Assembly (NCBI GenBank): GCA_944391315.1
Contig: CALXTD010000001.1
Span: 14,888 to 78,887, forward strand
DNA from: an uncultured Alphaproteobacteria bacterium
GTDB lineage: Bacteria > Pseudomonadota > Alphaproteobacteria > RF32 > CAG-239
DNA length: 64,000 nucleotides
Direction of reading: 5' to 3'
Shown piece after piece: positions 2,144-49,432 of this stretch. A model generated the notes under the pieces. It ran no database searches. It was not told the origin of the DNA and saw only the letters and a program-made list of their open reading frames with translations. Position 1 is the stretch's first letter. Every line of letters starts with the position of its first letter. The translations under genes were made by a program, and so were the position numbers.

Positions 2144-2698
2144 TTAAAACTCGGTAAACAAAACAGGGCGGACATCATTTAATGCCGTTTGTTCTGCATA
2201 GCGAATTCCATGAGTTGAATAGCAGCAGACGCAGTCTTCGCAAGGGGAGGTGGCTGATACAATGCTTTTTATCAGCGGTGCTTTAATCTTTTCAAGACTT
2301 TGGTTGACCTCTTTGATGTTGCGAAAAATGGCGATTGTTTCCTCAATGGAGGGTAAGAAGGCTTGTCCTGCTTTAATGCCGTTTTGATGGTAATTAAAAC
2401 AATAAGACGCTGCTTCGACTCTTCCGGAGTGTTTCTCTGCTTGTTCGAGCAACATTTGGGTGGCTTCTTTGCCTGATAGATTTTGTGGAATTACTAAGCG
2501 TAAGTTGTTTGAAGCCCAAGGAAGCCTGTGTTGGTCAAGGCAAAATGACCAAAATCCTTTGCTCTCCACCAGTGCTACTATTGCAGAAATTTCTTGGTCT
2601 TCTTTTTGCTCAAAAGAAGTGCTTCCGTCGCTGTAATAAAACATTCCTGCGGCAATCTTGCGGCTGGGGTCATCTGTTTGTAAAATTGTTTTATCCAT
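2144..2698 (-). CDS. Hypothetical cytoplasmic protein with a possible distant DUF1566-like C-terminal core (HRLPW ... YSTHG ... VRPVLF)
   Basis: 184-aa ORF with no signal peptide. Weak motif resemblance to the W-x-LP / WSS / VRxV core of the secreted family elsewhere in this window. Confidence 0.55.
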   Translation of the reverse strand: MDKTILQTDDPSRKIAAGMFYYSDGSTSFEQKEDQEISAIVALVESKGFWSFCLDQHRLPWASNNLRLVIPQNLSGKEATQMLLEQAEKHSGRVEAASYCFNYHQNGIKAGQAFLPSIEETIAIFRNIKEVNQSLEKIKAPLIKSIVSATSPCEDCVCCYSTHGIRYAEQTALNDVRPVLFTEF

Positions 2699-2832
2699 AA
2701 TCTATAACTTAATAATAATAAACTTTTAGCTTTATAAAAGAGAGGTGTTTTTTTGTCAAGAAAAAGAATTAAAAAAACAAAAAAATGGTATTGACATTGA
2801 TGATGGAATCATGTATATAAGTCTCAACAAAT

Positions 2833-2906
2833 TGCTTCATCGTCTAATGGTAGGACAGCGGACTCTGACTCCGTTAATCGTGGTTCGAATCCATGTGAAG
2901 CAGCCA
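2833..2906 (+). tRNA. tRNA-Gln (anticodon CUG)
   Basis: Cloverleaf folded by hand. Acceptor stem UGCUUCA/UGAAGCA, D-loop AAUGGUAGGACA, anticodon stem GCGGA/UCCGU with loop CUCUGAC, T-loop GGUUCGAAUCC, discriminator G and encoded CCA. Confidence 0.85.
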
Positions 2907-6000: not shown

Positions 6001-6219
6001 GAAATAAAAAAGTTAAAAGTAGAAAATATGAACTTACTTGAATTAAAAAACATGAGTATTTTAGATAAAGATGAAAAGAATAAAATAAAAGATTATATTG
6101 ATGATTTAATATTTGCTTTATATTTTGATATATCTTTAGATGGTTTAGATTATAAGAACTCTATGGATCTTAAGAAGCGTTGTGTTAAAAATAAATTTTA
6201 TAGTAATATTAATCTATAA
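3082..6219 (+). CDS. Single-chain restriction-modification-like enzyme (MmeI-like Type IIG/IIL architecture): HsdR_N/Mrr-like N-terminal nuclease-fold domain, gamma-class N6-adenine methyltransferase domain, C-terminal specificity domain. The likely true start is the ATG at 3116.
   Basis: N-terminus RRADIVIFIKGNDIVIPVEVERYGN ... ILTDGYSWRFY fits the HsdR_N PD-(D/E)xK pattern; motif I IIDPSCGSGTFLYS; motif IV FDFVVGNPPYIGY; ~500 aa beyond motif IV. GC is very low (~25-27%) against ~40-45% in the flanks. Confidence 0.75.
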   Translation: MFKFQCCCEGSMSKTIEELKRIWLQDNKAFKTKELGGLQTFITDIFKCPQLFNLKQGYESTSDKDRKNEFTIEKNKNKRRADIVIFIKGNDIVIPVEVERYGNIGAGVSQLIDYQNDYQKSYGILTDGYSWRFYNNTVYKVFTLDEILEKFDVFETFWRDYITEENYYLNFFCGGDGQSTIEESLKVEENKELFFEDITNLIQKFKNKLDIVGYLCEKGTVDSNKKATEIAYAYFIQFILYKNLVDNCYSTFHEEFTKRMHNIYKGLKAGLYRTVSLEVFSISGFISDKLYKPFSKEQEYINKKLNEVIRKPEVLLDEVTLWLDIIVFIKKYNFANMKNEIFGYIYENYLKELYSEENKGQYFTDPAIVNFMLDEVGYTIKNIKKLHKKGALSIIDPSCGSGTFLYSVVDRIVTALFDGTEPSAEVVEKIVNDNVFGLDIEEFPLYLAEMNILMRMLPIIINKDYTNPIDKKIKVFKTQDSISEFIDAGISGQIDAGLDENTGQYSLFNPSILELSYKSYIRDEDDLKEMKQSIRPPRKRFDFVVGNPPYIGYNECCKQKVLFTQLDNIRMDNIYGVNLNTVPGYKKSYSPKPNLFAFFIALGGGLLKIKGKLCYIIPQTVLTAQDLDVLRYYLSNNVTLEKILTFSGKLFIGRGIKGKNPIATSSLIFIINKTTPKNGNIVKVINYTKHDTSDLSKILNSRKNKIVKEILQKDLLNNIENWNFLTKTKEEIFLIKNYIQNSMSIEEFRRTLPNYDFIQFDKGVVFDKKKIDLEEKDWKIIKKIKGYTKLGTSGYLEDKEIRYPEGAQGKNIFLNKYKIVWRYMNPDGFYFSDENIMIDFNYVIISSNDKKEILMLLSLLNSKLSNFIFYFYLKLANEKDMLCGIKSIKQFIRVPKITENNKYLKEEIVIQTQKMLDLENKKLSDFVDFTDITMQKFDKVSFDNNSFILTKNDEKYKLKIRNLQKLSVIKENFEIKKLKVENMNLLELKNMSILDKDEKNKIKDYIDDLIFALYFDISLDGLDYKNSMDLKKRCVKNKFYSNINL

Positions 6220-6427: not shown

Positions 6428-7780
6428 ATGGAAGATTTATTTGCAGCAATGGCAAAACCGCAACCGGTTGCGGCAGAAGCTCCTGATGGGCTGAAAGAAT
6501 ATAGTGTTACCGAGATTTCGGCAGAGATTAAGCGCTGTGTTGAAACGCGGTTTAATCGGATTAAGGTTAAAGGTGAGATTTTTGGTTGCAAGCGTGCTGA
6601 TTCCGGTCATTATTACCTTTCTTTGAAAGATGAAAATGCGGTTATTTCTGCCGTGTGTTGGCGTGGGGTGGCTTCTGGTTTAAAATTTAAACCTGAAGAC
6701 GGACTTGAGGTTGTTGCGGTTGGTAAGATTACGACTTTTGCCGGAAAGTCGTCTTATCAATTGGTGATCGATCAGCTTGAAATTTCCGGTACCGGCGCTT
6801 TGTTAAAACTGTTGGAAGAGCGTAAAAAGCAGTTTGCCGCCGAGGGGCTTTTTGATCAGACTCATAAAAAGAAAATTCCTTATTTGCCACAGACAATCGG
6901 TGTGGTTACTTCTGCCAGCGGTGCGGTTATTCGTGATATTATTCATCGTGTGCGGGATCGCTTTCCTTCACATATTTTGTTGTGGCCGACGCCGGTGCAA
7001 GGAGAAGGAGCTGCTGAAAAAGTGGCGGCTGCCGTTAAAGGATTTAATGCTCTTTCTAAAGGCGGAAAAATTGCTCGTCCGGATGTGATTATTGTAGCGC
7101 GTGGCGGTGGTAGTCTTGAAGATTTGTGGCCTTTTAACGAAGAAGTTGTTATTCGTGCCGTTTATGATTCTGAGATTCCGATTATTTCTGCGGTGGGTCA
7201 TGAGACGGATACGATGTTGATTGATTATGTGGCTGATGTGCGGGCACCAACTCCGACCGGTGCGGCTGAGTTTGCGGTTCCCGTGAAGGCGGAGCTTGAG
7301 GCAAGTTTGGCAACTTCTCAGGCCAGATTAGTCAATGCTTTGCATCGCTATCTGATTAATTATAAAACTATTATTGATGGATTGGGACGTGGTATTCCTA
7401 ATCTTAATCAGATTTTGCAAGACTATTATCAGCGGCTTGATGATCGTACAGAGCGGCTCAAGCTTTCTATCAGAAATGTGATGCAGCAAAAAAACAATAC
7501 TTTGCAGATGGTGCCGCTTAAAGCTTATTACATCATGAACCTATTTGAAAAAAATCAAGAAAATTTAAAGAATTTGATGTTAAGACTTGAATCAGTTTCA
7601 GTCGAATCTGTGCTGCGGCGCGGGTTTGCCTGGGTGAAGGACAGCAAGCAAAAAACGGTTTATTCAACTGATCAGGCAAAAGCCAGCAGTGTGTTGGAAA
7701 TTCGTTTTGCAGACGGAGCCATTAAAACAAAACCAGTGGTGAAAAAGAATGAATTACAAGGCGATTTATTTGATTGTTAG
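6428..7780 (+). CDS. xseA: Exodeoxyribonuclease VII large subunit
   Basis: OB-fold N-terminus (YSVTEISAEIKRCVETRFNRIKVKGEI) and the XseA catalytic core are conserved over 450 aa. Confidence 0.9.
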   Translation: MEDLFAAMAKPQPVAAEAPDGLKEYSVTEISAEIKRCVETRFNRIKVKGEIFGCKRADSGHYYLSLKDENAVISAVCWRGVASGLKFKPEDGLEVVAVGKITTFAGKSSYQLVIDQLEISGTGALLKLLEERKKQFAAEGLFDQTHKKKIPYLPQTIGVVTSASGAVIRDIIHRVRDRFPSHILLWPTPVQGEGAAEKVAAAVKGFNALSKGGKIARPDVIIVARGGGSLEDLWPFNEEVVIRAVYDSEIPIISAVGHETDTMLIDYVADVRAPTPTGAAEFAVPVKAELEASLATSQARLVNALHRYLINYKTIIDGLGRGIPNLNQILQDYYQRLDDRTERLKLSIRNVMQQKNNTLQMVPLKAYYIMNLFEKNQENLKNLMLRLESVSVESVLRRGFAWVKDSKQKTVYSTDQAKASSVLEIRFADGAIKTKPVVKKNELQGDLFDC

Positions 7781-27087: not shown

Positions 27088-27873
27088 ATGAAAAAAAATT
27101 ATTATTTTGTAATAGGTCAAAAAGATCTTGATGTGGTGGAAGCCATTAAGCTTTTAGAGGCTTATCATTTGCCGTATCGCTGTTTGGAAACGCCTTATAT
27201 CTTTACGAAAACCGAAGAAAATGAGCTTAAGCAAAAAGGTTATGAGCCTTATTATGTTCATGTGTCGTATCGTTCTTTTCCGGATGAAGAGGAAAAGTTT
27301 GACAGTTCCTTCCTTTATCGGTTAATCGGTTTGTTGAATAAAACCATTTCGGATTGGCAACGCGATGTGATGACTTATTGCGAGAGGCCTTTTGAAAAAG
27401 AGTGGTCAAATCGTCTAAGGGGCTTTGTGATACGTGGTTGTTCGCGTTCGTATATTGAAAAATTGCAAGCTGAAAATCGGAAAGCTTTGGGTTTTGATGA
27501 CAAGGCAGAAGAAATGGCTATTCAAGCTGTGGACGAGGCGATGAAGCGTTTTTCATCAAATCGAGATTATTTGATTGTTCACTGGGATTATAAGCCCCAG
27601 AGTTCGGAATTTGAAGCTTTTTTGCCGGTGTTAGACCGAGTTTTCTGGTTGCAGAATTTTGTAAACGTTCTGATTGTAACGTCTGAATGTGCTTTGTATT
27701 ACGGCTATCGGAATATTGCTTGGGATATGGTTACTTTTGGCACGGCGACGGCCTGCGTTACGGATAATATGACGGATTTTCTTTATTCGATTGCTCATCA
27801 TCGAATGGAAGATGCCGAAAAGTTCTTGAAAACTAAAACAGCCGAACTTCGCAACCTCGGTCTTTTGTGGTAA
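27088..27873 (+). CDS. Hypothetical protein (orphan cassette)
   Basis: 261-aa ORF with its own promoter-like site and terminator; no recognisable motifs. Confidence 0.55.
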   Translation: MKKNYYFVIGQKDLDVVEAIKLLEAYHLPYRCLETPYIFTKTEENELKQKGYEPYYVHVSYRSFPDEEEKFDSSFLYRLIGLLNKTISDWQRDVMTYCERPFEKEWSNRLRGFVIRGCSRSYIEKLQAENRKALGFDDKAEEMAIQAVDEAMKRFSSNRDYLIVHWDYKPQSSEFEAFLPVLDRVFWLQNFVNVLIVTSECALYYGYRNIAWDMVTFGTATACVTDNMTDFLYSIAHHRMEDAEKFLKTKTAELRNLGLLW

Positions 27874-29435: not shown

Positions 29436-30287
29436 CTAAAAAGCGAGGACGGGGCGGACCTCGCGGCTGGAGTACTTACTGCCGTTGTTGCGCAAACCGT
29501 AACTGTCGCCAAAGTATGAGGCCCACGCGAAGTCGTAATTGCTCTCGGACGACGACCAAGCGTAGGTGCTGTCTGTGAATGTAGTCCCACCGACCTTCTC
29601 AAATCCTAAATTTATTGCCGTTTGGTTATTATAATATGAGGTAAATATTCCTGCTGCCGGTAAGCACCAATCTCCCGCACTCGTTCCTTCCGTTTTATAC
29701 TCATTTGCTGCCCATACCGCAGGATACTTGCTCTTATTTCCCGCTGCCATTATTTTTTTACTATTCTCACAACTTGCGACGTCTTGTGAGGCTGATGAAG
29801 CTGAACTATAGTTCGTTAAACCAGAGATATCGACATATTCTGATGACCACTTATAGCTGCCTATCGACTTTAAGGCCAGCGCCTGTCCGCCGCCAGTACC
29901 ATCTATATAGACTACGATTCCTATTGGCGTTTTACCTAACATTAAATTCGACGAACAACTCTTATCCGAATATAATATACTTCCTATATAGCAGACTTCT
30001 TTTGGTGTTTCTAAATCCTCCACCTTCTGTTCGATCTCCATTATTTTATTTGTTTGTTCTGTTATCTTATTCGTTAATTCTGTAATTTTTTCTGTTATCT
30101 CGGTTTTGATTTCGTTGATACTGCAATTCCAAGCTTCACCGAAGGGGCATTTTATGCCGCTGTCGCATGCTGTGCTGCTGGTGTAACCGAGGGAAGAACA
30201 AGTCGGGGTTGGAACGCAGGTTTGGGCTTGGGTTATGCCGCAACTTATTATGATTGCCGTTGTGGTGTAATAGAATATTCTTTTCAT
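29436..30287 (-). CDS. Secreted protein: signal peptide, Cys-rich CxxPxCxxLGYT module, coiled-coil heptads, C-terminal DUF1566 (Lcl-C-terminal-like) domain
   Basis: Start at MKRIFYY after RBS gaggag; motifs GDWCLPAAGIF, YAWSSSE and C-terminal EVRPVLAF are shared with the 41.9-46.1 kb genes. Confidence 0.7.
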   Translation of the reverse strand: MKRIFYYTTTAIIISCGITQAQTCVPTPTCSSLGYTSSTACDSGIKCPFGEAWNCSINEIKTEITEKITELTNKITEQTNKIMEIEQKVEDLETPKEVCYIGSILYSDKSCSSNLMLGKTPIGIVVYIDGTGGGQALALKSIGSYKWSSEYVDISGLTNYSSASSASQDVASCENSKKIMAAGNKSKYPAVWAANEYKTEGTSAGDWCLPAAGIFTSYYNNQTAINLGFEKVGGTTFTDSTYAWSSSESNYDFAWASYFGDSYGLRNNGSKYSSREVRPVLAF

Positions 30288-30303
30288 TTTTGTTCTCCTC
30301 ATT

Positions 30304-31113
30304 TTAATAAGCTGGGCAAAAGCCGCAATAATAAGTATAGTTGTTTTGGCAGGTGGTCATGTACCACAAGCCCGAACATTCTTCATATTCGCAAATCATT
30401 CCTTGCGGGCAAGTGGTGTATTTTCCCAAGTTCGGGCAAGGTTTGCAGTTATCATATTTAATTACATCACCGGATTGGCAAGTTTCGGCATCGGCTTCCC
30501 CACCCATTGAGCCGCAATCTTGAAAGCCGTCACAAGGATTAGGTTTGACTTTATATTTTTTAATACCGTCGCAGTCTAAACAAGCTTCGCCGTCTTGAAT
30601 ATAACCTTCGGGAATAGAGGTCACATCATAGCCTTCGCCGCAAGGCGTGCAATCGCAAGAGGCATATTTGCCACCGCAAGCTTCGCCAACACCATAATAA
30701 GGTGCTTCACAAGTTACATAACCTGATGGGCAAACAGAAATGCATTCGGAATAATACGGACCATAAGGACATTTCTTGCCGCCGAGTTTATAGCCATCAG
30801 GACAAGAAGCATAAATAAAGCCTTCATTAAAGCAACGGTCACGAGGATTAAAATCATAGTCCGGCGGATTACTGGAGTTGCCAAAGATATTGTCTTCGCA
30901 TTCGGACATATCAGTCACAAAACAGACGGCGGCTAATTGAATTTCATCAGGTGAAGGCAAACGCGGAGCAGAATAAAGGTGTGTGTGAAGCGTGTCGGCA
31001 AGTTGTGTTTCATCTATGATAAAAGAAATATCAGCTTTGGCGTTGCTTGGAAAAAGTCCTGTCACCAAACAAAGCGCCGCGGCCAGAACCGCCTTTTGTC
31101 GTGAGATAAACAT
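30304..31113 (-). CDS. Secreted cysteine-rich protein; homologous to the N-terminal half of the fused gene at 41924-43636
   Basis: Signal peptide; CFNEGFIYASCPDGYKLGGKKCPYGPYYSECISVCPSGYVTCEAPYYGVGEACGGKYASCDCTPCGEGYD is nearly collinear with the 41924 product. Confidence 0.7.
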   Translation of the reverse strand: MFISRQKAVLAAALCLVTGLFPSNAKADISFIIDETQLADTLHTHLYSAPRLPSPDEIQLAAVCFVTDMSECEDNIFGNSSNPPDYDFNPRDRCFNEGFIYASCPDGYKLGGKKCPYGPYYSECISVCPSGYVTCEAPYYGVGEACGGKYASCDCTPCGEGYDVTSIPEGYIQDGEACLDCDGIKKYKVKPNPCDGFQDCGSMGGEADAETCQSGDVIKYDNCKPCPNLGKYTTCPQGMICEYEECSGLWYMTTCQNNYTYYCGFCPAY

Positions 31114-32199: not shown

Positions 32200-33780
32200 A
32201 TGCAAAATAAGATTAACCTGTCAACACTGAATGCAAAGATTGCGCAAGAGATTGTGCAATTTAAGCGCTTTGATTTGCTTGTAAAACATTTTCCGACGGC
32301 AAAGCAGATGGTGGAATATTCAAATTTTGTTCCACAATATCCTCAGCGAAAAAATTCGGTTTTGGCTTTGTTGGTGCAGAGCGGTGATGCTTTTTTGTTG
32401 CGTCGTTTTTGGGATTTTTATTTTGTGAAGCAGTCTGCTCCTGCTGAATGTGAAGAAAAATTTCTTGATGGGACAGATGCTGCCGGTCAAATGATAAATT
32501 ATCATTATTTTCGTAATGATGCGCCGTTTGAGGTCTTGCGTGAAGAGGCTGCTTTTCGGAATGTTGATTGTGCTGACTTTAATTATTCTCTTACACCAAA
32601 ACAAGCTGCTCGTTGGAAAATTTATAGTTTTTTGAAACAAAAGCGTAAATCTTTGGAGAAAAAGAAGCCATTGTCGGTAAATATTTCTCCTTTTGAAAGA
32701 AAATTTGATGCTTCGACAAAGACAATTAATGAAGCTGTAACATTGCCCAATAGTGGTGCTTGGCAAAAAGACGTTAAGCCCTTTGATAAGGTTGTTTTTG
32801 TTCGAGATAAAGAAAATTTTTCGGAACAAGTGGATTTAGATATTGCTTCTGATGTTTCTTTTACTGAGCAGGTTTTTAGAAATGCAGACTTTCCTGATGA
32901 ATTTTTTTGGGCAGGAGATATGCTGCGTTTGTGGAATAAGGCCTTTCCAAAGTTTGAGAAAAACGAGGCGGCGCTTTTTTTTGCTAAAAATAATGGGGTT
33001 TTGATGCTTCATCAGGATAGATCTTCGCAAAAGTTGAATTTGAAGTCAGGTAACGATGCGTCTGCATATTTACAATATAATAATGATGATTTTTTGGTGT
33101 TTGGAATTAATTATAAAAAGTGCTATTTGGAAGAAAAATATTTTCAAAATATTATTCGACATGAGTTGACTCATGGCGTTGATTTGTTTGATGATAAAGT
33201 TTGTTCTTATGAGTTTTCTGAATCTGATTTTATGAAATTTTGTGATGTGTTGCTTTATCAAGAACGTCATAACTTTGTGCGAAATGTCGTTAATTATTAT
33301 AGTCCGGAAGATCGTCGTGTTGAATTATTGGCAAAAATTATGGAGCGAGATTCTGAGGCTGTTAATAATCATCCTCTTATACCTTCAATTAAAAATTCTT
33401 TTACTGCGTTTACCAAATGGCGGCTTGAAAATAATCAGCAAAAAATTGAGCAATTTAATGGGCTGGTTCGCAAAAATCTGGGAGAGCATCGCTATAATAA
33501 GTGGTGTGAGGTGTTTGATGCTTTTGAAGATTATGCTGCTTCAGATACTTCTTTTGATTGGAAACATGCTTGGGATAAGCCGGATGCTAAAAATGAGAAA
33601 AAATTTCGCGCCTTTTTGAGTCACTTTTATAAAACCTTGGGAACAGGAGAGCGCATTGTTGATATCTGGGAAAATAAACTTGCCCATATGGCGGATGACT
33701 TTCTTGATAAAAATTCTTCTCAAAAAAGATTTTCAGCGCTTGATTTGTTTGGTAAAAATATTAAAAATAAAGAAATCTAG
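32200..33780 (+). CDS. Hypothetical protein with HExxH zincin-like motif (IIRHELTHGVDLFDD)
   Basis: 526-aa orphan ORF with an HELTH motif mid-protein. Confidence 0.6.
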   Translation: MQNKINLSTLNAKIAQEIVQFKRFDLLVKHFPTAKQMVEYSNFVPQYPQRKNSVLALLVQSGDAFLLRRFWDFYFVKQSAPAECEEKFLDGTDAAGQMINYHYFRNDAPFEVLREEAAFRNVDCADFNYSLTPKQAARWKIYSFLKQKRKSLEKKKPLSVNISPFERKFDASTKTINEAVTLPNSGAWQKDVKPFDKVVFVRDKENFSEQVDLDIASDVSFTEQVFRNADFPDEFFWAGDMLRLWNKAFPKFEKNEAALFFAKNNGVLMLHQDRSSQKLNLKSGNDASAYLQYNNDDFLVFGINYKKCYLEEKYFQNIIRHELTHGVDLFDDKVCSYEFSESDFMKFCDVLLYQERHNFVRNVVNYYSPEDRRVELLAKIMERDSEAVNNHPLIPSIKNSFTAFTKWRLENNQQKIEQFNGLVRKNLGEHRYNKWCEVFDAFEDYAASDTSFDWKHAWDKPDAKNEKKFRAFLSHFYKTLGTGERIVDIWENKLAHMADDFLDKNSSQKRFSALDLFGKNIKNKEI

Positions 33781-38550: not shown

Positions 38551-38654
38551 CAAACCGTTCCGCTATTTCTTTAGCTGAAAAAATTCCCCGTCAATTATTT
38601 TTTTTGACGGGGTTTTCTTTTGTTAAAGGCATATTAATATTATGTTGTTATATT

Positions 38655-40244
38655 ATGAAAAAAGTTTTGTTGAGAGTGCTTATGGCTGATACTGAAATAA
38701 ATGATTCTACTGACTTGTCCGTTGCTGATATGATGGGGCAAGTTGAACCGGCAGCAGTGAGTGATTTTGAGGCGGGGAAAGTTGAGCTTTCTGTTCCGCG
38801 TAAATATATTCCGGTTAAAAAAGAGCCTAAAAAACAGCCTGAGGCAAAGCCAAAACCGCCGTTAGGAAAAGCTGTTCCGGTTTTTCGGACAGAAACTTAT
38901 GTTGATGATGACGGGATTGAGCATATGATGCCGCCAAGCTATGATAAGTCAAAAATGAATCTTCCTCAGGCAAAATTTAAACGTCCGGAAAATATGTCTA
39001 TGATTAGAGACGATGAGGTAGTGTCAGAACAAATTCGACAAGAAGAGGCTCAAAAGGCAGCGCAAGAAGAGACACCTGATTTTATTCGGGAGTGGCAAAA
39101 TTCTTCGTCTGATGCCGATAGCGAAGTTAATGATATTTTAGATGATGACGGTGTTGTTGATTTAGCTATCGAAGGAGAAGATGAGGAACCAGATGTTTCT
39201 GAAAAAACAGAGAATAGTCTGATTAAGCCCGAAGATGATATCCTTGTAAGCGGTGTTGATGAGAGTGATAATCAATCTGAGCTTTTGAGTGCGGAAGAAG
39301 ATGCTGAATTTGATATGGATCAGATTAATAAACTGTTGGCAGAGCAGGCAGAAGCTGAACCTAAAGATGAAGTTTTGGATTTAAATATTGATGATTTGTT
39401 GGGAGACGGTGAGCAGAGGGCGGAAGTAGAAGAGCAACATGTTATTCCAAAGTTTGAAATAGATGATGTGGAAAGCGAGACGTCTCCGGCGTCATTGCCC
39501 ATGCTTGAAGTTGAGCCGGTTAAAGAGATTACGGAAGAAAAAATACCGACCATAGAAGCTGAACCGGTTGAAGAAGTTACATCGGAAGTGATGCCGATTA
39601 TAGAACCTGAACCGGCTGTAGAGGCTGAACCTATTACAGAAGCTGCGCCGAGTGTGACGGAAGATGTTTCTCTCCCAGAGCCGGAAGAGATTGTTGAGGC
39701 GCCTGAACCGATCATAGAAGCCGAACCAATTAAAGAGGTTGTTGCGGAAGAGGCTATAATTGATGAGGCTAAACCTGAAGAAATGCCTTCAGTTGAAGCT
39801 AAAAATGAAGAGCCAAGGACTATTGAGCTTGAGCCAGCAGTGGCTTCTGCTTTAGTTGAAAAAATTGAAGATGTTCCGTCGGTTGAGGATAGCTCTTCTC
39901 CTCAACAACAATTGGAAGAGGCATCTCTTTTTGTTCGGCAATATAGCGGTCATCTTGATGATTCTTACTTTGTGGTTTCTGCTAAAAATCTTCCTGAGGA
40001 ATTTGTTGGCGCTCCTTCGCAAAACAGCATACAAATTAATGTCGGAACATCAGATTATGGTTGGAGTGTTTTGTTTGCCAACGGAATCTTGATGGGGATT
40101 TCTGATGTTAGAATGTTTCAGTTGAAATATGGTAAACTTCCGGCAACGGGAGGAACGCTAATGTATGGAACTAAAAAAATGAAGTTCTCCGAAGTGGAGA
40201 GAATCGTTCTTTATCAAAGTCCTCAGTATTTTTCTTATGTGTAA
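38655..40244 (+). CDS. Acidic low-complexity protein with EAEP/EPxxE repeats and a conserved-looking C-terminal domain; start uncertain
   Basis: Long ORF; the repeat block EAEPVEEVTSEVMPIIEPEPAVEAEPITEA; function unknown. Confidence 0.5.
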   Translation: MKKVLLRVLMADTEINDSTDLSVADMMGQVEPAAVSDFEAGKVELSVPRKYIPVKKEPKKQPEAKPKPPLGKAVPVFRTETYVDDDGIEHMMPPSYDKSKMNLPQAKFKRPENMSMIRDDEVVSEQIRQEEAQKAAQEETPDFIREWQNSSSDADSEVNDILDDDGVVDLAIEGEDEEPDVSEKTENSLIKPEDDILVSGVDESDNQSELLSAEEDAEFDMDQINKLLAEQAEAEPKDEVLDLNIDDLLGDGEQRAEVEEQHVIPKFEIDDVESETSPASLPMLEVEPVKEITEEKIPTIEAEPVEEVTSEVMPIIEPEPAVEAEPITEAAPSVTEDVSLPEPEEIVEAPEPIIEAEPIKEVVAEEAIIDEAKPEEMPSVEAKNEEPRTIELEPAVASALVEKIEDVPSVEDSSSPQQQLEEASLFVRQYSGHLDDSYFVVSAKNLPEEFVGAPSQNSIQINVGTSDYGWSVLFANGILMGISDVRMFQLKYGKLPATGGTLMYGTKKMKFSEVERIVLYQSPQYFSYV

Positions 40245-40283: not shown

Positions 40284-41123
40284 TTATCTATTTATTGGAA
40301 AAATCTGAACATTTGAATTTACCAGACTATTGTCTACCGGAACTTCTTGTTCGAGGAGCTCTTCGGCTTTGGTCTTCATATGTGCTGTTTTAGTGTTTGT
40401 TCTCAAGCTTGGAGCTAAAGGATAAGCATCTTTGGGCAGGCGCAAAAGCATGTAGCCGGTGCCGCCGCCATAAGTCGGGCCAGACAAGCCGATTGAGTAA
40501 TAGCCGCCGATATAGCCATAGTCTAAGTCAATGTAATCAATCGAGAAAACAGTTTTGATTGAGGTTTGGCCGATGGCGTTCATTTGGCACATATATCCGG
40601 AATCTTCCATGATGATGTTTGAAACACTTTTGGCAAATAAAATCGTTTTGGCGGCTAAGCAATCCGGTGTTTGACCATTGAAGCTGACGTCATAGTTCAA
40701 CACCAAATTTATTTGTTGATTGCCGCGGGCAACGGTTACGTCAGTCAGTTTTACCGAATCAACATAGAAATAAGCCTGAGTTATGCCGCTTTTTATCGGA
40801 AGTTGAATGTAGTTTTCAAGGCAGACGTGACTGCTGGGATCCGCCTCGCAAATCAGTGCGGTTTTACGGCTGTTGTTTTGCAGCAGGTGAAGCAGGCTAT
40901 TGTGAATATATTCGCGGCTCATGGATAGTTCGGCCGGTGCGCATTGTTTGCTGCGGCACACAACAACAGAGCTTGGTTGGCGCAATCTTGAGTTTTCTAC
41001 AACAGTTTGCTCGTTTAACGGGTTAGATACGAATTCTTTGAAATTCATCGTCCGCAAGTAGCAACCGCTTAGCATTAAGCATAATGCAGATAAAATTATC
41101 TTCTGACGAATCTGTCCGGACAC
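40284..41123 (-). CDS. Hypothetical lipoprotein
   Basis: Lipobox LMLSGCYL; 279 aa. Confidence 0.6.
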   Translation of the reverse strand: MSGQIRQKIILSALCLMLSGCYLRTMNFKEFVSNPLNEQTVVENSRLRQPSSVVVCRSKQCAPAELSMSREYIHNSLLHLLQNNSRKTALICEADPSSHVCLENYIQLPIKSGITQAYFYVDSVKLTDVTVARGNQQINLVLNYDVSFNGQTPDCLAAKTILFAKSVSNIIMEDSGYMCQMNAIGQTSIKTVFSIDYIDLDYGYIGGYYSIGLSGPTYGGGTGYMLLRLPKDAYPLAPSLRTNTKTAHMKTKAEELLEQEVPVDNSLVNSNVQIFPINR

Positions 41124-41923: not shown

Positions 41924-43636
41924 ATGGTGAAGAATATGATTATAGGGACAACTGTGTTCGGATTAGGCCTTATGACGAACACGGCATTAGGTGCAACTTT
42001 AAGTACCGGAACCTTACTTTACCATAGCACGCCAATCGGCTCTAGCCTGTTTACAAATCTACATTCTACACACACACAACTTGTAAAACAGCATGTGTCT
42101 TCACTTTCTGTGAGCAAAGATATTTCAAAAAATAAAGAATATAAGACAGCAGCGGTATGTTTTATTTCCGACACGGCGGCGTGCAGTGATAATCAGTTTG
42201 GTGGCTCAGGAGATTCTGACTTTGAATTTAGCAATAAAGAACGCTGCTTTAATGAAGGCTTTACGGTCACAGATTGTCCGGACGGATATAAACCGGGAGG
42301 AAAGAAGTGTCCATATGGTCCGTATTACAGCGAATGTGTTTCGGCTTGTCCGACGGATTATGTGACTTGTGAAGAACCATATGTCGGTGTGGGGGAAGCT
42401 TGCGGCGGTAAATATGCGTCATGTACTTGTACGCCTTGCGGAGAAGGTTTTGATTATACCGAAATTCCCGAAGGTTATGAACAAGTCGGTGAGGCTTGTT
42501 TGGACTGTGACGGACAAACAAAATATAAAGTTACACCGGCAGCCTGTGAAGGCTTCCTGCAATGCGGAGATTTAGGGCCGATTTTTGGAACGGAGACTTG
42601 CTTGTCGGGTACGACGACACTTTATAAAGAATGTAAAACCTGTCCGAATATCGGAAAATATTCATCTTCTTCACCCGAATGTTCGGCGCCGTTTACCTGT
42701 AGTTATGAAGATTGCTCGGGAAAATATTATCAGAGCGGTTGTGTAGAGGGCTTTACCTGGGATGAAACGGCCAAGACTTGTACTTGTGATGGTGTGGATT
42801 GGTGTGCGATAACACCGAGCTGCACGGATTTGGGCTATAAGCAACAAACCTGTAACGGTCCGGCGCTCAAATGTCCGTTCAATGTCGATTATTCATTCTG
42901 CACCGGAGAATGTAGCCCGCTGTTTAAAAATACTTGTAAAGGCACCGGCTACGCCGGTGGCGCAGGCTCTGCCTGCGGTGGCAAATATGCTTCTTGCGAA
43001 TGCGCTGAGGGATATAAATGGGAAAATGGTCAATGTAAGGCAGAAGCGATATGGGGACAGTGCAGTGGCTATGCTGCACAGTGTTCACTTGGGGATATCT
43101 TATTCAGCGACGGAACTTGCAGCGCGAATACGGTATCGGGTAAAACACCGATAGCGGTTGTGGTCTATAAATCGGGCAACTGCGGACAAGCGATGGCGTT
43201 AAAGTCGATAGGCAACTATGAGTGGGGTGGGTATGGTACAGATATCTCGACATTACCGAACTATACATCAAACTCAGCAGCCTCAAAAGACTATGCAAGT
43301 TGTGAGAATAGTAAAAAGATAAGAGCACAGGGAAATAGCAGTACCTATCCGGCAGTATGGGCAGCATATAACTATACAACAACAGGAACAAAGGTCGGAG
43401 ATTGGTGCTTGCCGGCGGCAGGAATATTTACCTCATATTATAACAATCAAAGCGTTATCAATACGGGATTCAGCCGAGCGGGTGGAACACAATTCACAAT
43501 CAGCACCTACGCTTGGTCGTCGTCCGAGTACACTGACTACTACGCGTGGGGCTCACACTTTGTCCACAGTTACGGTTTGACCGGCGGCACCAATAAGGAC
43601 CGCAGCAGCGAGGTCCGCCCCGTCCTCGAGTTTTAG
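41924..43636 (+). CDS. Secreted fusion protein: Cys-rich N-terminal region plus C-terminal DUF1566 (Lcl-C-terminal-like) domain
   Basis: RBS gaggtgg; Cys-rich half collinear with 30304-31113; C-terminal GDWCLPAAGIF ... YAWSSSE ... EVRPVLEF. Confidence 0.75.
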   Translation: MVKNMIIGTTVFGLGLMTNTALGATLSTGTLLYHSTPIGSSLFTNLHSTHTQLVKQHVSSLSVSKDISKNKEYKTAAVCFISDTAACSDNQFGGSGDSDFEFSNKERCFNEGFTVTDCPDGYKPGGKKCPYGPYYSECVSACPTDYVTCEEPYVGVGEACGGKYASCTCTPCGEGFDYTEIPEGYEQVGEACLDCDGQTKYKVTPAACEGFLQCGDLGPIFGTETCLSGTTTLYKECKTCPNIGKYSSSSPECSAPFTCSYEDCSGKYYQSGCVEGFTWDETAKTCTCDGVDWCAITPSCTDLGYKQQTCNGPALKCPFNVDYSFCTGECSPLFKNTCKGTGYAGGAGSACGGKYASCECAEGYKWENGQCKAEAIWGQCSGYAAQCSLGDILFSDGTCSANTVSGKTPIAVVVYKSGNCGQAMALKSIGNYEWGGYGTDISTLPNYTSNSAASKDYASCENSKKIRAQGNSSTYPAVWAAYNYTTTGTKVGDWCLPAAGIFTSYYNNQSVINTGFSRAGGTQFTISTYAWSSSEYTDYYAWGSHFVHSYGLTGGTNKDRSSEVRPVLEF

Positions 43637-43660
43637 GGCAGAGATGAGATAAGGAGAAAG

Positions 43661-45181
43661 ATGATGATGAACAGGAAAAGTTTGATGATTTCGACGATGC
43701 TTATGTCTGCTATGGGTGTCAGTGGTGTTGTCGGGAATGTGTGGGCGGCAGATGTTCAATGCTTGAAAACGCCGAGTTGCGAAGAGCTGGGTTATACCGA
43801 AGTTGCGTGTTTTCAGAATAACGGCGTGAAATGTCCGTATGGCGATAAATATTTTTGCGTCTGCCCGACGAATTATAAATTTACCTGTACCGGAGAAAAT
43901 CAAACCGGCGGTGTGGGTGATAATTGCGACGGGAAATATGCGTCTTGCTCTTGTTCTAGCGGCTTGATGTGGGGTGACGGTGCTTGTGTTGAACACTGTC
44001 CAGTTGGTTCGATTTTGTTTGATGACTTCACTTGCAGTGATGATGTTGCCTCCGGCAAGACTCCTATCGGTGTCGTGGTTTATAAAGACGGTAAAGGCGC
44101 CGGTCAGGCTTTGGCGCTGAATTGGGTGGAAAATAAAACAAGCTACTATTGGTCTACGGAAAATATTGATATTACTTCTTTAACTAACTATGCAACAGCA
44201 GACAAGGCATCTCAAGACTTTTTCAGCTGTTCAAATAGTCAAAAAATCATGGCACAAGGAAATTCTACAAAATATCCAGCGGTATGGGCGGCTTATAATT
44301 ATACAACGACAGGAACAAGTGTAGGTCAATGGTGTTTGCCATCAGCCGGTATCATAACGGAATATTACAATAATCAAGACATAATAAATACTGCGTTTAG
44401 CCGCGCTAATGGTGCCGCTTTTACTAATACGACTTACACGTGGTCTTCCACAGAAGCTATGAGTAATAAGGCTTGGCTATCTTCTTTTGGTGCCAATTAT
44501 GGTTTGACCTATGGTTCCATGGAAAAAGATTATGGTCGTCATGTCCGCCCGGTGGTTGGGTTCTGTAATGATGCGGAGAATTATGTTTATGACCAAGCGA
44601 CGGATAGTTGTGTGAAAGATAATATTTGTCGTTTGGGAAGTATTTTCTATTCTGATATGACTTGCTCGATGCGGCTTAAAGACGGCAAAACGCCTATAGG
44701 CGTTGTGGTCTATGTAGATGAAAACGGCGCAAACGCTCAAGTTATGGCGTTAAAGTCGATAGGCAGCTATGAGTGGGGCGGCTATGGTACGGACTCGGGC
44801 TTGACGAACTATACATCAGCCTCAGCAGCCTCACAAGACTATGCAAGTTGTGAGAATAGTAAAAAGATAAGAGCACAGGGAAATAGCAGTACCTATCCGG
44901 CAGTATGGGCAGCATATAACTATACAACAACAGGAACAAAGGCTGGAGATTGGTGCTTACCGGCAGCAGGAATATTTACCTCAATCTACAATAATCAAAG
45001 CACCATAAACACGGGATTCAGCCGAGCGGGTGGGACACAATTCACATCGAGTACCTACGCTTGGTCGTCGTCCGAGTACAGTAGTAACGACGCGTGGCGC
45101 TCCTACTTCTACTCCAGTTACGGTTTGTACGGCAGCTATAAGCGCTACGACTTCGAGGTCCGCCCCGTCCTCGCTTTTTAG
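43661..45181 (+). CDS. Secreted protein with two DUF1566-like domains (start may be the 2nd or 3rd ATG of MMMNRK)
   Basis: Signal peptide MMNRKSLMISTMLMSA is identical to that of the next gene; two copies of the W-x-LP / WSS / VRPV core. Confidence 0.75.
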   Translation: MMMNRKSLMISTMLMSAMGVSGVVGNVWAADVQCLKTPSCEELGYTEVACFQNNGVKCPYGDKYFCVCPTNYKFTCTGENQTGGVGDNCDGKYASCSCSSGLMWGDGACVEHCPVGSILFDDFTCSDDVASGKTPIGVVVYKDGKGAGQALALNWVENKTSYYWSTENIDITSLTNYATADKASQDFFSCSNSQKIMAQGNSTKYPAVWAAYNYTTTGTSVGQWCLPSAGIITEYYNNQDIINTAFSRANGAAFTNTTYTWSSTEAMSNKAWLSSFGANYGLTYGSMEKDYGRHVRPVVGFCNDAENYVYDQATDSCVKDNICRLGSIFYSDMTCSMRLKDGKTPIGVVVYVDENGANAQVMALKSIGSYEWGGYGTDSGLTNYTSASAASQDYASCENSKKIRAQGNSSTYPAVWAAYNYTTTGTKAGDWCLPAAGIFTSIYNNQSTINTGFSRAGGTQFTSSTYAWSSSEYSSNDAWRSYFYSSYGLYGSYKRYDFEVRPVLAF

Positions 45182-45208
45182 GGCAGAGATGAGATAAGGA
45201 GAAGTAAG

Positions 45209-46129
45209 ATGATGAACAGGAAAAGTTTGATGATTTCGACGATGCTTATGTCTGCGGTCGGCGTTGGTGTCGGAAATGTTTGGGCGCAATGTGCGACCGA
45301 GGACTGTGCAGCGCTGGGTTATACTGAGGCGTATAATTCCAGCGGAAATTGCTTGAAATGTCCGTTTGGGGAAGCGTATAACTGTGAAGCCGGTTACATC
45401 TGCCCTGAAGGATATAATTATACATGTTCCGGTACCGGCTATTCCGGCGGCGTTGGAGAAGCCTGCAACGGGAAATATGCTGAATGTGCCTGCAAAGAAG
45501 GGTATAAGTTAGTGGATGGAGAATGTATTAAGCCAGCAGAATTTGGACAGTGCAGTGGCTATGCGGCACAATGTTCACTTGGTGATATCTTGTTCAGTGA
45601 CGGCACGTGTAGCGCGAATAAGGTATCAGGCAAAACGCCGATAGCGGTCGTGGTTTATAAATCCGGTAGCTGTGGACAGGCACTAGCGCTGAATTCGATA
45701 GGCAACTATGAGTGGTCAACGGAACATGTCGATATCTCGACATTACCGAACTTATCGCACTCTCAAGCCTTACAAGACTTTGCAAGTTGTGAGAATAGTA
45801 AAAAAATAATGGCAGCGGGAAATAAGAGCAAGTATCCTGCGGTATGGGCAGCCTATAACTATACGACAACAGGAACGAAGGTCGGAGATTGGTGCTTGCC
45901 GGCGGCAGGAATATTTACCTCATATTTTAATAACAAAACGGCAATAAATTTAGGATTTGAGAAGGCCGGTGGGACTACATTCACAACCAGCACTGAAGCT
46001 TGGTCGTCGTCCGAGGACAATAACGGCAACGCGTGGTACTCAGGCTTTAACTACGGTTACGGTTTGGACTACAACCGCTACTACAGTAAGCTCTACAGCC
46101 TCAAGGTCCGCCCCGTCCTCGCTTTTTAG
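45209..46129 (+). CDS. Secreted Cys-rich protein with one DUF1566-like domain
   Basis: Same RBS and signal-peptide block as at 43661; C-terminal KVRPVLAF. Confidence 0.75.
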   Translation: MMNRKSLMISTMLMSAVGVGVGNVWAQCATEDCAALGYTEAYNSSGNCLKCPFGEAYNCEAGYICPEGYNYTCSGTGYSGGVGEACNGKYAECACKEGYKLVDGECIKPAEFGQCSGYAAQCSLGDILFSDGTCSANKVSGKTPIAVVVYKSGSCGQALALNSIGNYEWSTEHVDISTLPNLSHSQALQDFASCENSKKIMAAGNKSKYPAVWAAYNYTTTGTKVGDWCLPAAGIFTSYFNNKTAINLGFEKAGGTTFTTSTEAWSSSEDNNGNAWYSGFNYGYGLDYNRYYSKLYSLKVRPVLAF

Positions 46130-46202
46130 GTTTTATCTTGAGAACAAAAAAATTCCCCGTTCGGTTCGCCGTGTGGGGAAGTTTTTTTTGAGTTGTGCAA
46201 AA

Positions 46203-48312: not shown

Positions 48313-48385
48313 GATTTCTTGTTTTTTATGTAAAAATGCTGTAAAATATTGTTAGTGTTATGGGCGGATGATTTTAAGGTTCGGT

Positions 48386-49432
48386 ATGAAAGTTGAAGAT
48401 TTTGAGACATTGGTTGAAAATTGCAAGTTCTTTTTAGATGATGAAAAAGTTCGGTTTGTTCCTTATTCAATCAAAGACAACAAGCGGGTTGCGAAAATTC
48501 TTATTGAAAATAAGATGACAAATATTTCTTTGGATGAATTTAATGAAATCGCAAAGCAAAGCGCACCGCTTTATCAAGCCAGAAAAAAGCTTAAGCAAAA
48601 ATCGCTTGATAAGTATAATGCCATGTCACCTGAAGAAGTTGCCAAGCTGTCCATGGAGAATAAAGTTGAATATTTGGAGCTTTTATTTCCTCGTAACCAA
48701 ACGAAGGAAAATGTTGAAGATATATGCCGTAAAAATGAAGAAAATATTCGCGCCTGTTTGTTTCATTTAGATTTTCCTCAGAGCTTTTGGCAAAAGGAAA
48801 AAGAGCAAGCTACTCGTTATGCTTCTTTAGTGGCGAAATCTCCGGAGATAACGCAAAAGTTAAAAAATTGGCAGGATACGAGCTTGGACGATAAAAAAGA
48901 AGTGATAAAACAGTCGCTGAAAATTTTTGAATATGTTTATGGCGATGCTCCAAAGCTTGAGTTTTTTACTGAGGCGCAAGAACGCGAACGATTAGTCAAA
49001 TTAGGTTATCCCGAAGAGGTGCATGTCAATGCAGCGAATTATCATGAAGGTGTCATCAGTTTTAATACTGATAGATTGCAAGAAAGTGACAACCTTTTTG
49101 CGGTGTCGGTTCCCTTTCATGAAGGGACACATTATCGGCAAGATGTTCAAAGTTTTGGCGATACTCTTGTTGACAGGATTTTTCAGAGCAGTGTGACTAA
49201 TCTTCTTGCTTATGACAATGAGCGTAATGATAAGCAAGACAAGAATTATAAAGATCTTTATACCATGTTGCCGTGTGAGGTGCATGCTTATGGGCTGCAA
49301 GAATATATGGAAAATGAGCTTATTGAAAAAGCCGGAATTCAAAAGGCTAATAATAAGGATACACCTGTGGTTAAACGTATTCATGATAAAGGATATAGTA
49401 TGGCAAAAGTAAATCAGTACCGCAGTCGGTAA
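48386..49432 (+). CDS. Hypothetical protein with HExxH motif (VPFHEGTHYRQD); start taken at MKVEDFE
   Basis: Orphan ORF; a second HExxH-bearing protein in the window. Confidence 0.55.
   Translation: MKVEDFETLVENCKFFLDDEKVRFVPYSIKDNKRVAKILIENKMTNISLDEFNEIAKQSAPLYQARKKLKQKSLDKYNAMSPEEVAKLSMENKVEYLELLFPRNQTKENVEDICRKNEENIRACLFHLDFPQSFWQKEKEQATRYASLVAKSPEITQKLKNWQDTSLDDKKEVIKQSLKIFEYVYGDAPKLEFFTEAQERERLVKLGYPEEVHVNAANYHEGVISFNTDRLQESDNLFAVSVPFHEGTHYRQDVQSFGDTLVDRIFQSSVTNLLAYDNERNDKQDKNYKDLYTMLPCEVHAYGLQEYMENELIEKAGIQKANNKDTPVVKRIHDKGYSMAKVNQYRSR

Follow-up and report, generated by a model that had tools for sequence, protein, structure and literature searches.

The 64,000-nucleotide stretch of an uncultured alphaproteobacterial contig analyzed here (hereinafter, the window) contains a tandem array of three genes, g1, g2 and g3, and a further gene of the same family, g4, that encode secreted-looking proteins ending in a C-type lectin (C-lectin) unit. 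We consider it highly probable that g1–g3 and g4 are remote variable-protein genes of a diversity-generating retroelement (DGR), of the Lcl_C/DUF1566 lectin class, and that these genes additionally undergo gene conversion among paralogs. The observations behind this assignment are the anatomy of the variable regions (VRs), an adenine-specific substitution pattern, the fold of the lectin unit, the cassettes of template repeat (TR), Avd and reverse transcriptase (RT) genes in related genomes, and the turnover of VRs between close relatives. The initial annotation of this region described a tandem array of three secreted, cysteine-rich genes; they are indeed three consecutive plus-strand open reading frames (ORFs) with a shared C-terminal core, and what was overlooked is the DGR-type hypervariable stretch that closes each gene.

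In the known DGRs of phage BPP-1, Legionella and Treponema, RT-Avd misincorporates nucleotides opposite the adenines of TR RNA and the cDNA replaces the VR (PMC5758913). Directionality comes from the initiation of mutagenic homing (IMH) element at the VR 3' end, whereas homology sets the 5' boundary (PMC5758913). A similar route can be proposed for the window genes. A TR RNA transcribed elsewhere in the genome, with AAC at the variable codons, would serve as the template; an Avd-assisted, Brt-like RT would copy it, misreading the template adenines, and the resulting cDNA would replace the VR, guided on the 3' side by the GC-rich, IMH-type GTCCGCCCCGTCCTCG and on the 5' side by TGGTCGTCGTCCGAG. 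The four window VRs would be targeted in trans, each with up to ~1e20 possible binding-site variants on an untouched scaffold (a 112-nt template is computed to permit about 1e20 protein variants), and gene conversion among the many paralogs would reshuffle the remainder of the lectin unit.

Anatomy of the variable regions

In the gene-terminal lectin units, the last ~80 nt consist of NNC codons located between an invariant TGGTCGTCGTCCGAG and an exactly conserved GTCCGCCCCGTCCTCG. The VRs comprise 26-29 codons, nearly all of the NNC type (TAC, GAC, AAC, GGC, CAC, AGC, CGC, TTC and others), with the fixed codons GCG TGG, TCA, TTT, AGT TAC GGT TTG and AAG inside; on the 3' side they are followed by GAG (AAG in g3) and the invariant block, and they precede the conserved EVRPVL tail. 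The g1 VR (115 nt; 43514..43628, plus strand) includes TGGTCGTCGTCCGAG at 43514-43528, 27 variable codons at 43529-43609, and GAG with GTCCGCCCCGTCCTCG at 43610-43628. The VR of g2 unit 2 (112 nt; 45062..45173, plus strand) has its 5' homology at 45062-45076, 26 codons at 45077-45154, and GAG with the 3' block at 45155-45173, and the VR of g3 (121 nt; 46001..46121, plus strand) has its 5' homology at 46001-46015, 29 codons at 46016-46102, and AAG with the 3' block at 46103-46121. The g4 VR (29444..29558, minus strand) has its variable codons at 29463-29543. The VR thus takes up no more than a short segment at the 3' terminus of the ORF, within a C-type lectin fold, as is usual for DGR targets.

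Both homology blocks are exact, without even a synonymous change, in four of the five family units of the window, amid unit DNA that is otherwise 62-89% identical. Exactly four copies of the 18-mer AGGTCCGCCCCGTCCTCG are present in the window (at 43611, 45156 and 46104 on the plus strand and at 29444-29461 on the minus strand), compared to 0.00 occurrences expected by chance. The sequence GTCCGCCCCGTCCTCG is exact in the four window VRs and also in the TRs of two related loci (L034 and L082; related loci are denoted here by L numbers); past the ensuing CTTTTT, the VRs continue with AGG and the TRs with GTG. We infer that GTCCGCCCCGTCCTCG, together with CTTTTT, is an IMH-type element and that TGGTCGTCGTCCGAG is the 5' homology. 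The segment leading into the signal-peptide start that was initially reported to recur at 43609-43710 and 45155-45258 does so, with 91.4% identity (96/105), and the conserved block gaggtccgccccgtcctcg with the preceding variable stretch is a DGR 3' homology/IMH-type block plus VR rather than a product of duplication.

In g2 unit 1, which is internal, the VR position (44441-44563) is not of the NNC type, and the 3' block has decayed to GTCCGCCCGGTGGTTGGG; this region is hence a relic or a non-target in this genome and illustrates the appearance of a decayed target. The orthologous unit in the related metagenome contig L001 (12497-12613) has an NNC-type VR, where the 3' block, being internal to the gene, would also encode protein.

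The codon composition of the VRs can be assessed with no template at hand. Among 25 distinct 36-codon VRs of the family, entropy at codon positions 1, 2 and 3 shifts from 0.66, 0.54 and 0.99 upstream to 1.28, 1.18 and 0.81 inside the VR, with values of 1.8-2.0 bits for the first two positions of the AAC-derived codons. Variable first and second positions combined with a fixed third C are the reverse of neutral divergence and are expected from adenine mutagenesis of AAC codons. This pattern bears on the possibility that the genes are an ordinary, recently duplicated surface protein family shaped by duplication, unequal crossing-over, gene conversion and diversifying selection, with no retroelement involved. 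Such a history would account for the tandem array with its near-identical 24-27-nt spacers, and the conversion tracts and mosaic identity that it predicts are real. Nevertheless, we regard it as very unlikely given that it leaves unexplained the fixed third C with near-maximal entropy at positions 1 and 2, the AAC-rich non-coding copies of this segment that lie beside Avd and RT genes, and the adenine-specific mismatch statistics; furthermore, the array is syntenic in L001 and hence not recent.

Template repeats, Avd and RT in related genomes

AAC-rich non-coding TRs with VR flanks were identified in L034 (two), L082, L084 (two), L085, L086, L088 and L209. Each TR is preceded by a conserved ~130-nt leader with the motif AAAAAGGACTGCCGACA, for which an Rfam search yielded no family, and the AAC-rich TR copies end with GTCCGCCCCGTCCTCGCTTTTTGTG. 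In L034, from the metagenome-assembled genome (MAG) BRZ_SN bin90, and in L082, the TR reads ...TGGTCGTCGTCCGAG AAC AAT AAC AAC AAC GCG TGG ... and, in the 3' part, GGT TTG AAC AAC AAC AAT AAG AAC AAC AGC AAC GAG GTCCGCCCCGTCCTCG CTTTTTGTG... In both loci, the TRs are located just downstream of the g4 ortholog, on the opposite strand. These detached leader plus TR units, convergent with the g4 ortholog, occupy positions 6983-7320 (minus strand) in L034, with two tandem units at the contig end, and 2184-2440 (minus strand) in L082, with one unit; neither has an RT or Avd gene nearby, and in L082 an HTH_3 gene (2486-2848, minus strand) lies just upstream of the detached unit.

The enzymes were sought with the Bordetella phage BPP-1 proteins as probes. 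The RT of L045 matches Brt (1e-31) and RVT_1 (66.6 bits) and contains the motifs LPIGNLTSQ and YVDD; the Avd of the same locus matches PF22296 (59.6 bits) and NF033474 (E 1e-15), and a family gene and Avd directly precede the RT. The closest relatives of this RT are encoded in canonical cassettes, in the order Avd, ~130-nt leader, TR, RT, ligA, infC, at one conserved chromosomal site in L084-L086, L088 and L209; L087 contains a TR end and RT only. In L084 (621-1120), two tandem leader plus TR units of unlike codon layout are located between Avd and RT. Cassettes of Avd (or an Avd-like gene) and RT with no intervening TR are present in L045 (632-2491), L210 (6087-7958) and L211 (5626-7497), and because there is no TR between the two genes, the TRs of these genomes presumably must be located elsewhere. 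A small helix-turn-helix (HTH) gene on the opposite strand follows the RT in L045, L209, L210 and L211.

The contig ends of L086 (10125-10191) and L088 (8056-8092) are the first bases of a 16S rRNA gene; the DGR cassette in these loci is thus only a few kb away from an rRNA operon, which could help to place the clade taxonomically. Almost all RT contigs of the clade are short (2-10 kb), and hundreds of sequences belong to each of several RT clusters; this pattern fits assemblies that break where VR and TR sequences are repeated. When JGI metagenomes were scanned for exact copies of the TR-specific junction GAGGTCCGCCCCGTCCTCGCTTTTTGTG, there were 0 matches. The shorter TR core CAACAACGCGTGGAACT was detected in a metagenome scan in at least 120 loci of many different biomes; an RT is present in 43 of these, and none of the CAACAACGCGTGGAACT loci listed carries the 3' block of this clade.

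Adenine specificity of the substitutions

The most direct comparison comes from L088, where a target and its cognate TR are on one contig: mismatches affect 18 of 40 A, 0 of 36 C, 0 of 25 G and 1 of 27 T positions. The VRs of BRZ_SN bin90 differ from the TR of the same MAG at 127 of 296 A sites and 38 of 600 non-A sites (p = 3e-38; this test took 8 of the 12 112-nt VRs). When TR-a was compared to 21 VRs from several genomes, 49% of the A sites and 12-18% of the other sites were mismatched (p = 2e-63); for TR-b and 23 VRs, the values are 47% and 9-15% (p = 2e-45). The window VRs, compared to layout-matched TRs from other species, follow the same trend, with 64/117 A sites (55%) and 25/225 non-A sites (11%) mismatched (p = 1e-17). 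Individually, the g1 VR differs from the 115-nt TR of a related contig at 19-22 of 39-40 A sites and 6-11 of 75-76 non-A sites, and the best window pair is the VR of g2 unit 2 with a TR-a/TR-b composite of L034 (A 20/37, non-A 4/75).

Relatives, synteny and turnover of the variable regions

A scan of species-representative genomes retrieved 135 relatives. The loci that were kept come nearly all from seven MAGs labelled as uncultured Alphaproteobacteria or proteobacterium, along with one contig, L002 (CASFSC010000116.1; 1.7 kb), that bears the label 'uncultured Alistipes sp.' and is most likely mis-binned; its family protein shares 70% identity with g3. The genomes closest to the window are mostly ENA metagenome assemblies. 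Three MAGs contain at least 26, 31 and 16 family units, and one related MAG has at least 22 distinct VR-type segments. With respect to a phage origin, a tblastn search of 50,697 phage records gave only weak partial matches.

The metagenome contig L001, from a relative with ~90-95% identity to the window, carries the same three-gene array at the same site, between the same nuclease and pfk genes that flank the array in the window. The flanks and the Cys-rich parts are 90-100% identical between the two contigs, whereas the lectin units are 55-75% identical, in patches, and the orthologous VRs are wholly different beyond the fixed codons and unequal in length (40 vs 39 aa in g1, 42 vs 39 aa in g3). 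This conserved array and the hundreds of diverged members of the family contradict the recent duplication suggested by the initial annotation. The array is old, but the VRs, wholly different amid 90-100% identical flanks, have been rewritten or replaced since the split between the window and L001. In a different strain from another sample, locus L212 encodes a protein identical to one on the contig of the window and carries two more pairs of a Cys-rich gene and a lectin gene, with NNC-type VRs ending in GTCCGCCCCGT; the 3' block is the full TR-like one in one pair and GTCATTGAG in the other, and the L212 contig contains no TR or RT.

Self-comparison of the window revealed four in-register copies of 43246-43545. 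The near-identical blocks of ~270 bp that had been noted earlier (43263-43535 and 44812-45085) are real, although their identity is 90.2% (248/275) and not ~93%. A tract of ~100 nt in g1 (approximately 43288..43387, plus strand), delimited by sliding identity over bins of 50 nt, matches g2 unit 2 at 100% and is embedded in units that are ~75% identical. This tract, the divergence outside the VRs and the altered 3' blocks in L001 indicate that gene conversion acts too, apparently shuffling the rest of the lectin unit among paralogs and adding to its mosaicism. The expectation of a mosaic, recombination-prone family is therefore borne out, both by the identical tract and by the contrast between the domains and the flanks in L001.

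Many paralogs per genome and segmental mosaicism would also be in line with cassette-based antigenic variation of the Anaplasma msp2, Neisseria pilE/pilS or Borrelia vlsE type, whereby silent donors feed one expressed gene. However, each of the five family genes in the window has a complete ORF with a start and a signal-like N-terminus of its own, the self-comparison yielded no promoterless partial coding cassettes, and the sole partial copies are the AAC-rich TRs, which are unable to act as coding donors. Silent-cassette variation was rejected given that every family copy in the window is a complete ORF, and we view it as extremely improbable.

State of the proposed retroelement in this genome

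Several observations weigh against the assignment of g1–g4 as DGR targets. No homologs of TR, leader, RT, Avd, HTH, ligA or infC are present in the 64-kb window, which was searched with a Y[x]DD regular expression, with phmmer using Brt and Avd against ORFs of at least 80 aa, and with tblastn using the ligA, infC, HTH, RT and Avd proteins of the related cassettes, with no matches. It is this absence of TR, RT and Avd that makes the four window VRs remote targets. No TR with the 121-nt layout of g3 (7 + 4 codons around AAG) was found. The VR and TR lengths, including those from related loci, step by one codon (112, 115, 118 and 121 nt), and one TR alone cannot give rise to VRs whose lengths differ in steps of 3. 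In the VRs (43595-43597, 45140-45142 and family-wide), changes to the TR codon AAG are extremely rare despite its two adenines, which calls for selection as an explanation; because AAG can mutate to the stop codon TAG and is nearly always kept, purifying selection at this position is suggested. The non-A mismatches in the window VRs amount to 5-15% instead of ~0, with all the TRs coming from other species or strains; such residual mismatches are expected because none of the templates is from the genome of the window itself. Finally, several L001 orthologs carry a different 3' block (…GTCATTGAG), so that recombination also moves whole C-terminal segments and may underlie some of the VR differences.

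Part of this evidence would also fit relic targets, that is, VRs written by an ancestral DGR whose RT and TR have since been lost or inactivated, so that the genes now change only by point mutation and recombination between paralogs. The lack of RT, Avd and TR in the window is what such a loss would leave behind, the internal unit of g2 has a clearly decayed VR, and many paralogs in related MAGs have a diverged 3' block, with the exact TR-like 18-mer kept in only 7 of the 26 units of BRZ_SN bin90. Conversely, in decaying targets, the two blocks would hardly remain free of substitutions, synonymous sites included, in four of five units amid 62-89% identity; the third-position C of the NNC codons is still intact; and VRs unlike those of a relative with 90-100% identical flanks imply recent rewriting or replacement. 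On balance, relic targets appear improbable, although less so than the alternatives discussed above. The exact homology blocks, the intact NNC design, the VRs unlike those of L001 and the gene pairs of L212 favor the presence of a DGR core in this genome, and TR, RT and Avd are likely to exist and to be active there.

The clade might run a multi-template, multi-target DGR, in which one chromosomal Avd-RT pair serves 10-30 dispersed lectin-unit genes, but we propose this only tentatively, as a possibility that is more doubtful than not. Such a system would draw on a library of length-variant TRs that are individually headed by a ~130-nt leader. Some of these TRs are arranged in tandem in the Avd-RT interval, and others are detached beside an HTH regulator gene. 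Any target with both homology blocks could then receive sequence from more than one template, which would explain why orthologous VRs can be 112, 115 or 121 nt long. If so, this would be a combinatorial, possibly separately regulated DGR with the largest per-genome target repertoire in the DGR literature compared here.

The lectin unit

The initial annotation assigned the C-terminal domains to DUF1566. In a direct Pfam search, PF07603 (gathering threshold 34.9 bits) scores 18.6 with g2 and 10.6 with g1 and does not match g3, only 11 of 58 close family members match it at E < 0.01, an NCBIfam search with the g1–g3 proteins returned nothing, and sequence searches of the PDB, queried either with one protein or with a profile of the family, gave chance-level matches only. 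The assignment nevertheless is correct in substance. An AlphaFold (AF2) model of the whole g3 protein, with 58 family sequences as input, has a predicted local distance difference test (pLDDT) score above 90 across the lectin unit, and Foldseek matched this model to 4eps (E 8e-7) and to the C-terminal domain of Legionella Lcl (8q4e; E 3.5e-4). An exhaustive search of 1.84 billion representative proteins produced 849 clusters, 357 of them at E <= 1e-10, with up to six tandem units. Eight of the ten distant family members tested exceed the Lcl_C threshold, and their comparable best stretches map onto the alignment region of the window units. Because distant members pass the threshold and the fold matches the Lcl C-terminal domain, the lectin unit belongs, as a divergent member, to the Lcl_C/DUF1566 C-lectin superfamily, with homology established by transitivity and shared fold.

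Organization of the array and of the g4/g5 pair

The g1 gene (41924..43636, plus strand; 570 aa; in the ORF list and with an ortholog in the syntenic locus L001) encodes a signal-peptide-like N-terminus, a disordered stretch, a long Cys-rich module (42149..43063, plus strand) with the motif G..C.GKYASC.C present twice, and one divergent Lcl_C/DUF1566-type C-lectin unit (43067..43633, plus strand). The g2 gene (43661..45181, plus strand; 506 aa), 24 nt past the g1 stop, encodes a short Cys-rich module and, as initially noted, two DUF1566 units, namely, the internal unit 1 (43982..44563, plus strand; aa 108-301) and the gene-terminal unit 2 (44612..45178, plus strand; aa 318-506). The g3 gene (45209..46129, plus strand; 306 aa), 27 nt past the g2 stop, has a short Cys-rich module and one lectin unit (45557-46126). 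All three proteins are closed by the C-terminal unit of ~190 aa with the core GKTPI.VVVY ... GDWCLPAAGI ... AWSSSE ... VRPVL(A/E)F and contain, respectively, 42, 21 and 17 cysteines. By inspection, which is the sole basis for the signal peptide call, their N-termini are basic and then hydrophobic, of the Sec type, ending ...ALG/AT or ...VWA/(A,Q), with no lipobox.

The comparison with 29.4-31.1 kb that the initial annotation called for uncovered two further family genes on the minus strand. One of these, g4 (29436..30302, minus strand; 288 aa), encodes a signal or lipobox-like N-terminus (a possible lipobox, IIS-C, by inspection), a coiled-coil-like linker and a lectin unit. The other, g5 (30304..31113, minus strand; 269 aa), is a standalone Cys-rich module gene directly upstream of g4, with 75% nucleotide identity to 42239-42555 of g1, so that g5 and g4 together are a split version of g1. 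A Cys-rich gene followed by a lectin gene recurs in L034 (5172-6816), L082 (253-2026) and L212 (304-1884 and 8172-10122). The g1 gene resembles a fused version of this pair, a hint that the two proteins work together. The Cys-rich module represents a family that is specific to the clade, comprises 696 proteins and lacks any Pfam domain; the module is either fused or encoded by a separate upstream gene; its structure model is confident over aa 100-240, and a fold search gave no clear match. This module would be a disulfide-bonded stalk or partner of the lectin unit. The g1–g4 proteins are probably exported binders with a variable face on the lectin unit, with presumed surface exposure and a presumed ligand-binding role, as an adhesin or receptor.

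The g1-g2 and g2-g3 spacers are near-identical, and both contain a GGAG-type ribosome-binding site. Downstream of g3, there is a hairpin (46144..46189, plus strand; DNA fold z = -2.65) that consists of an A-tract, a GC stem-loop and a T-tract and is likely to be a bidirectional terminator. These spacers and the hairpin after g3 suggest that g1-g2-g3 form one transcription unit. A scan of the array for consensus promoters and terminators was at chance level, and the 46144-46189 hairpin is missing from its list. In a fold scan, the hairpins 3' of g3 and g4 resemble ordinary terminators, and g1 and g2 are followed by none; therefore, we make no claim of a DGR target-site cruciform.

Other features of the window

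Upstream of the array, a gene on the plus strand (38604-40244) encodes a very acidic protein of 546 aa with E/P/V/A-rich repeats and no Pfam match; this protein is retained in L001 (558 aa). Several ORFs near the family genes also lack a Pfam match: 40284-41123 (minus strand), 48368-49432, 32200-33780 and 27088-27873 (all plus strand). The GC content of the array (46-47%) is slightly above that of its surroundings (~40-44%). Elsewhere, a plus-strand gene (3082-6219) encodes a 1045-aa Eco57I/MmeI-type (type IIG-like) restriction-modification protein next to tRNA-Gln (2833-2906); at 26-31% GC, compared to ~42% elsewhere, it is probably a horizontally acquired defense gene beside a tRNA. The GC skew is positive in almost every 2-kb bin of the window (up to 0.27), and the genes are mostly on the plus strand, as expected for a leading-strand segment.

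Implications

With the present assignment, an anonymous DUF1566-like array becomes linked to a mechanism that can be tested, whereby exported lectin-fold proteins undergo targeted hypermutation of their binding face. An uncultured alphaproteobacterial lineage devotes dozens of genes to DGR-type variable proteins, four of which lie within 17 kb here. If the many paralogs and the partly detached TRs are all in use, the clade would be a natural model for studying how an RT chooses among templates and targets, for the interplay between retrohoming and paralog recombination, and for the ligands that are being tracked. Such loci break short-read assemblies, with most RT and family contigs being only a few kb long, and are overlooked by annotation that relies on domain thresholds.

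Comparison with known systems

The kind of system described here is already known, and the window adds new members to it. Targets of the DUF1566/DUF823/Fib_succ_major type ('CLec2' VRs, category 'd') account for 14% of DGRs, with Legionella LdtA as the type, and the maximum reported for one DGR is eight tandem and seven remote targets (Wu et al., 2018, PMC5758913). A MAG survey lists DUF1566 among the VR-bearing domains (PMC11661182), and nine DGRs were described in Thiohalocapsa (PMC10907252).

The closest counterpart is the Legionella pneumophila LdtA DGR, likewise a cellular, non-phage system with the VR at the extreme C-terminus of an exported DUF1566-type C-lectin unit, the same AAC-rich TR logic, a GC-rich VR 3' block, and Avd and RT. 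In Legionella, a single lipoprotein target adjoins its DGR, whereas here there are several targets per locus and dozens of paralogs per genome, remote from the RT, with Cys-rich N-terminal modules and, in g1–g3, no lipobox. By comparison with the C-terminal domain of Legionella Lcl (PF07603; PDB 8q4e), the window units, at ~190 aa, have ~70 extra N-terminal residues and insertions and score below the Pfam cut-off. To our knowledge, Lcl itself is a collagen-like adhesin that is not diversified.

The Treponema denticola system with TvpA (PDB 2y3c) also has multiple remote targets, but TvpA is of the FGE-sulfatase type and not of the Lcl_C type (PMC4891356, PMC5758913). Seven remote targets were reported in T. 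denticola; here, a single related MAG has no fewer than 22 VR-type segments, and several TR variants occur. The variable proteins of 'domain group 1' in Bacteroides DGRs match the fold of 4EPS, as does the g3 model, and are related to type V pilus tip adhesins (bioRxiv 10.1101/2024.11.15.621889). In contrast to these adhesins, the proteins in question have a Cys-rich module instead of a pilin N-terminal domain, with no Pfam match in the Cys-rich N-terminal parts, their genes neighbor a nuclease gene and pfk rather than forming a stalk/anchor operon, and the hosts are Alphaproteobacteria, not Bacteroidota; we attribute the 4eps resemblance to the lectin head. The Mtd/Avd/TR/Brt system of Bordetella phage BPP-1 (AY029185) is a phage tail-fiber system with one adjacent target, whereas the system considered here is chromosomal and multi-target, and the related cassettes of L045 and L210/L211 have no TR between Avd and RT. 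The less ordinary traits, all observed in related loci and not in the window, are the size of the family, the stepwise lengths, the tandem and detached TRs, and the Avd-RT cassettes devoid of a TR.

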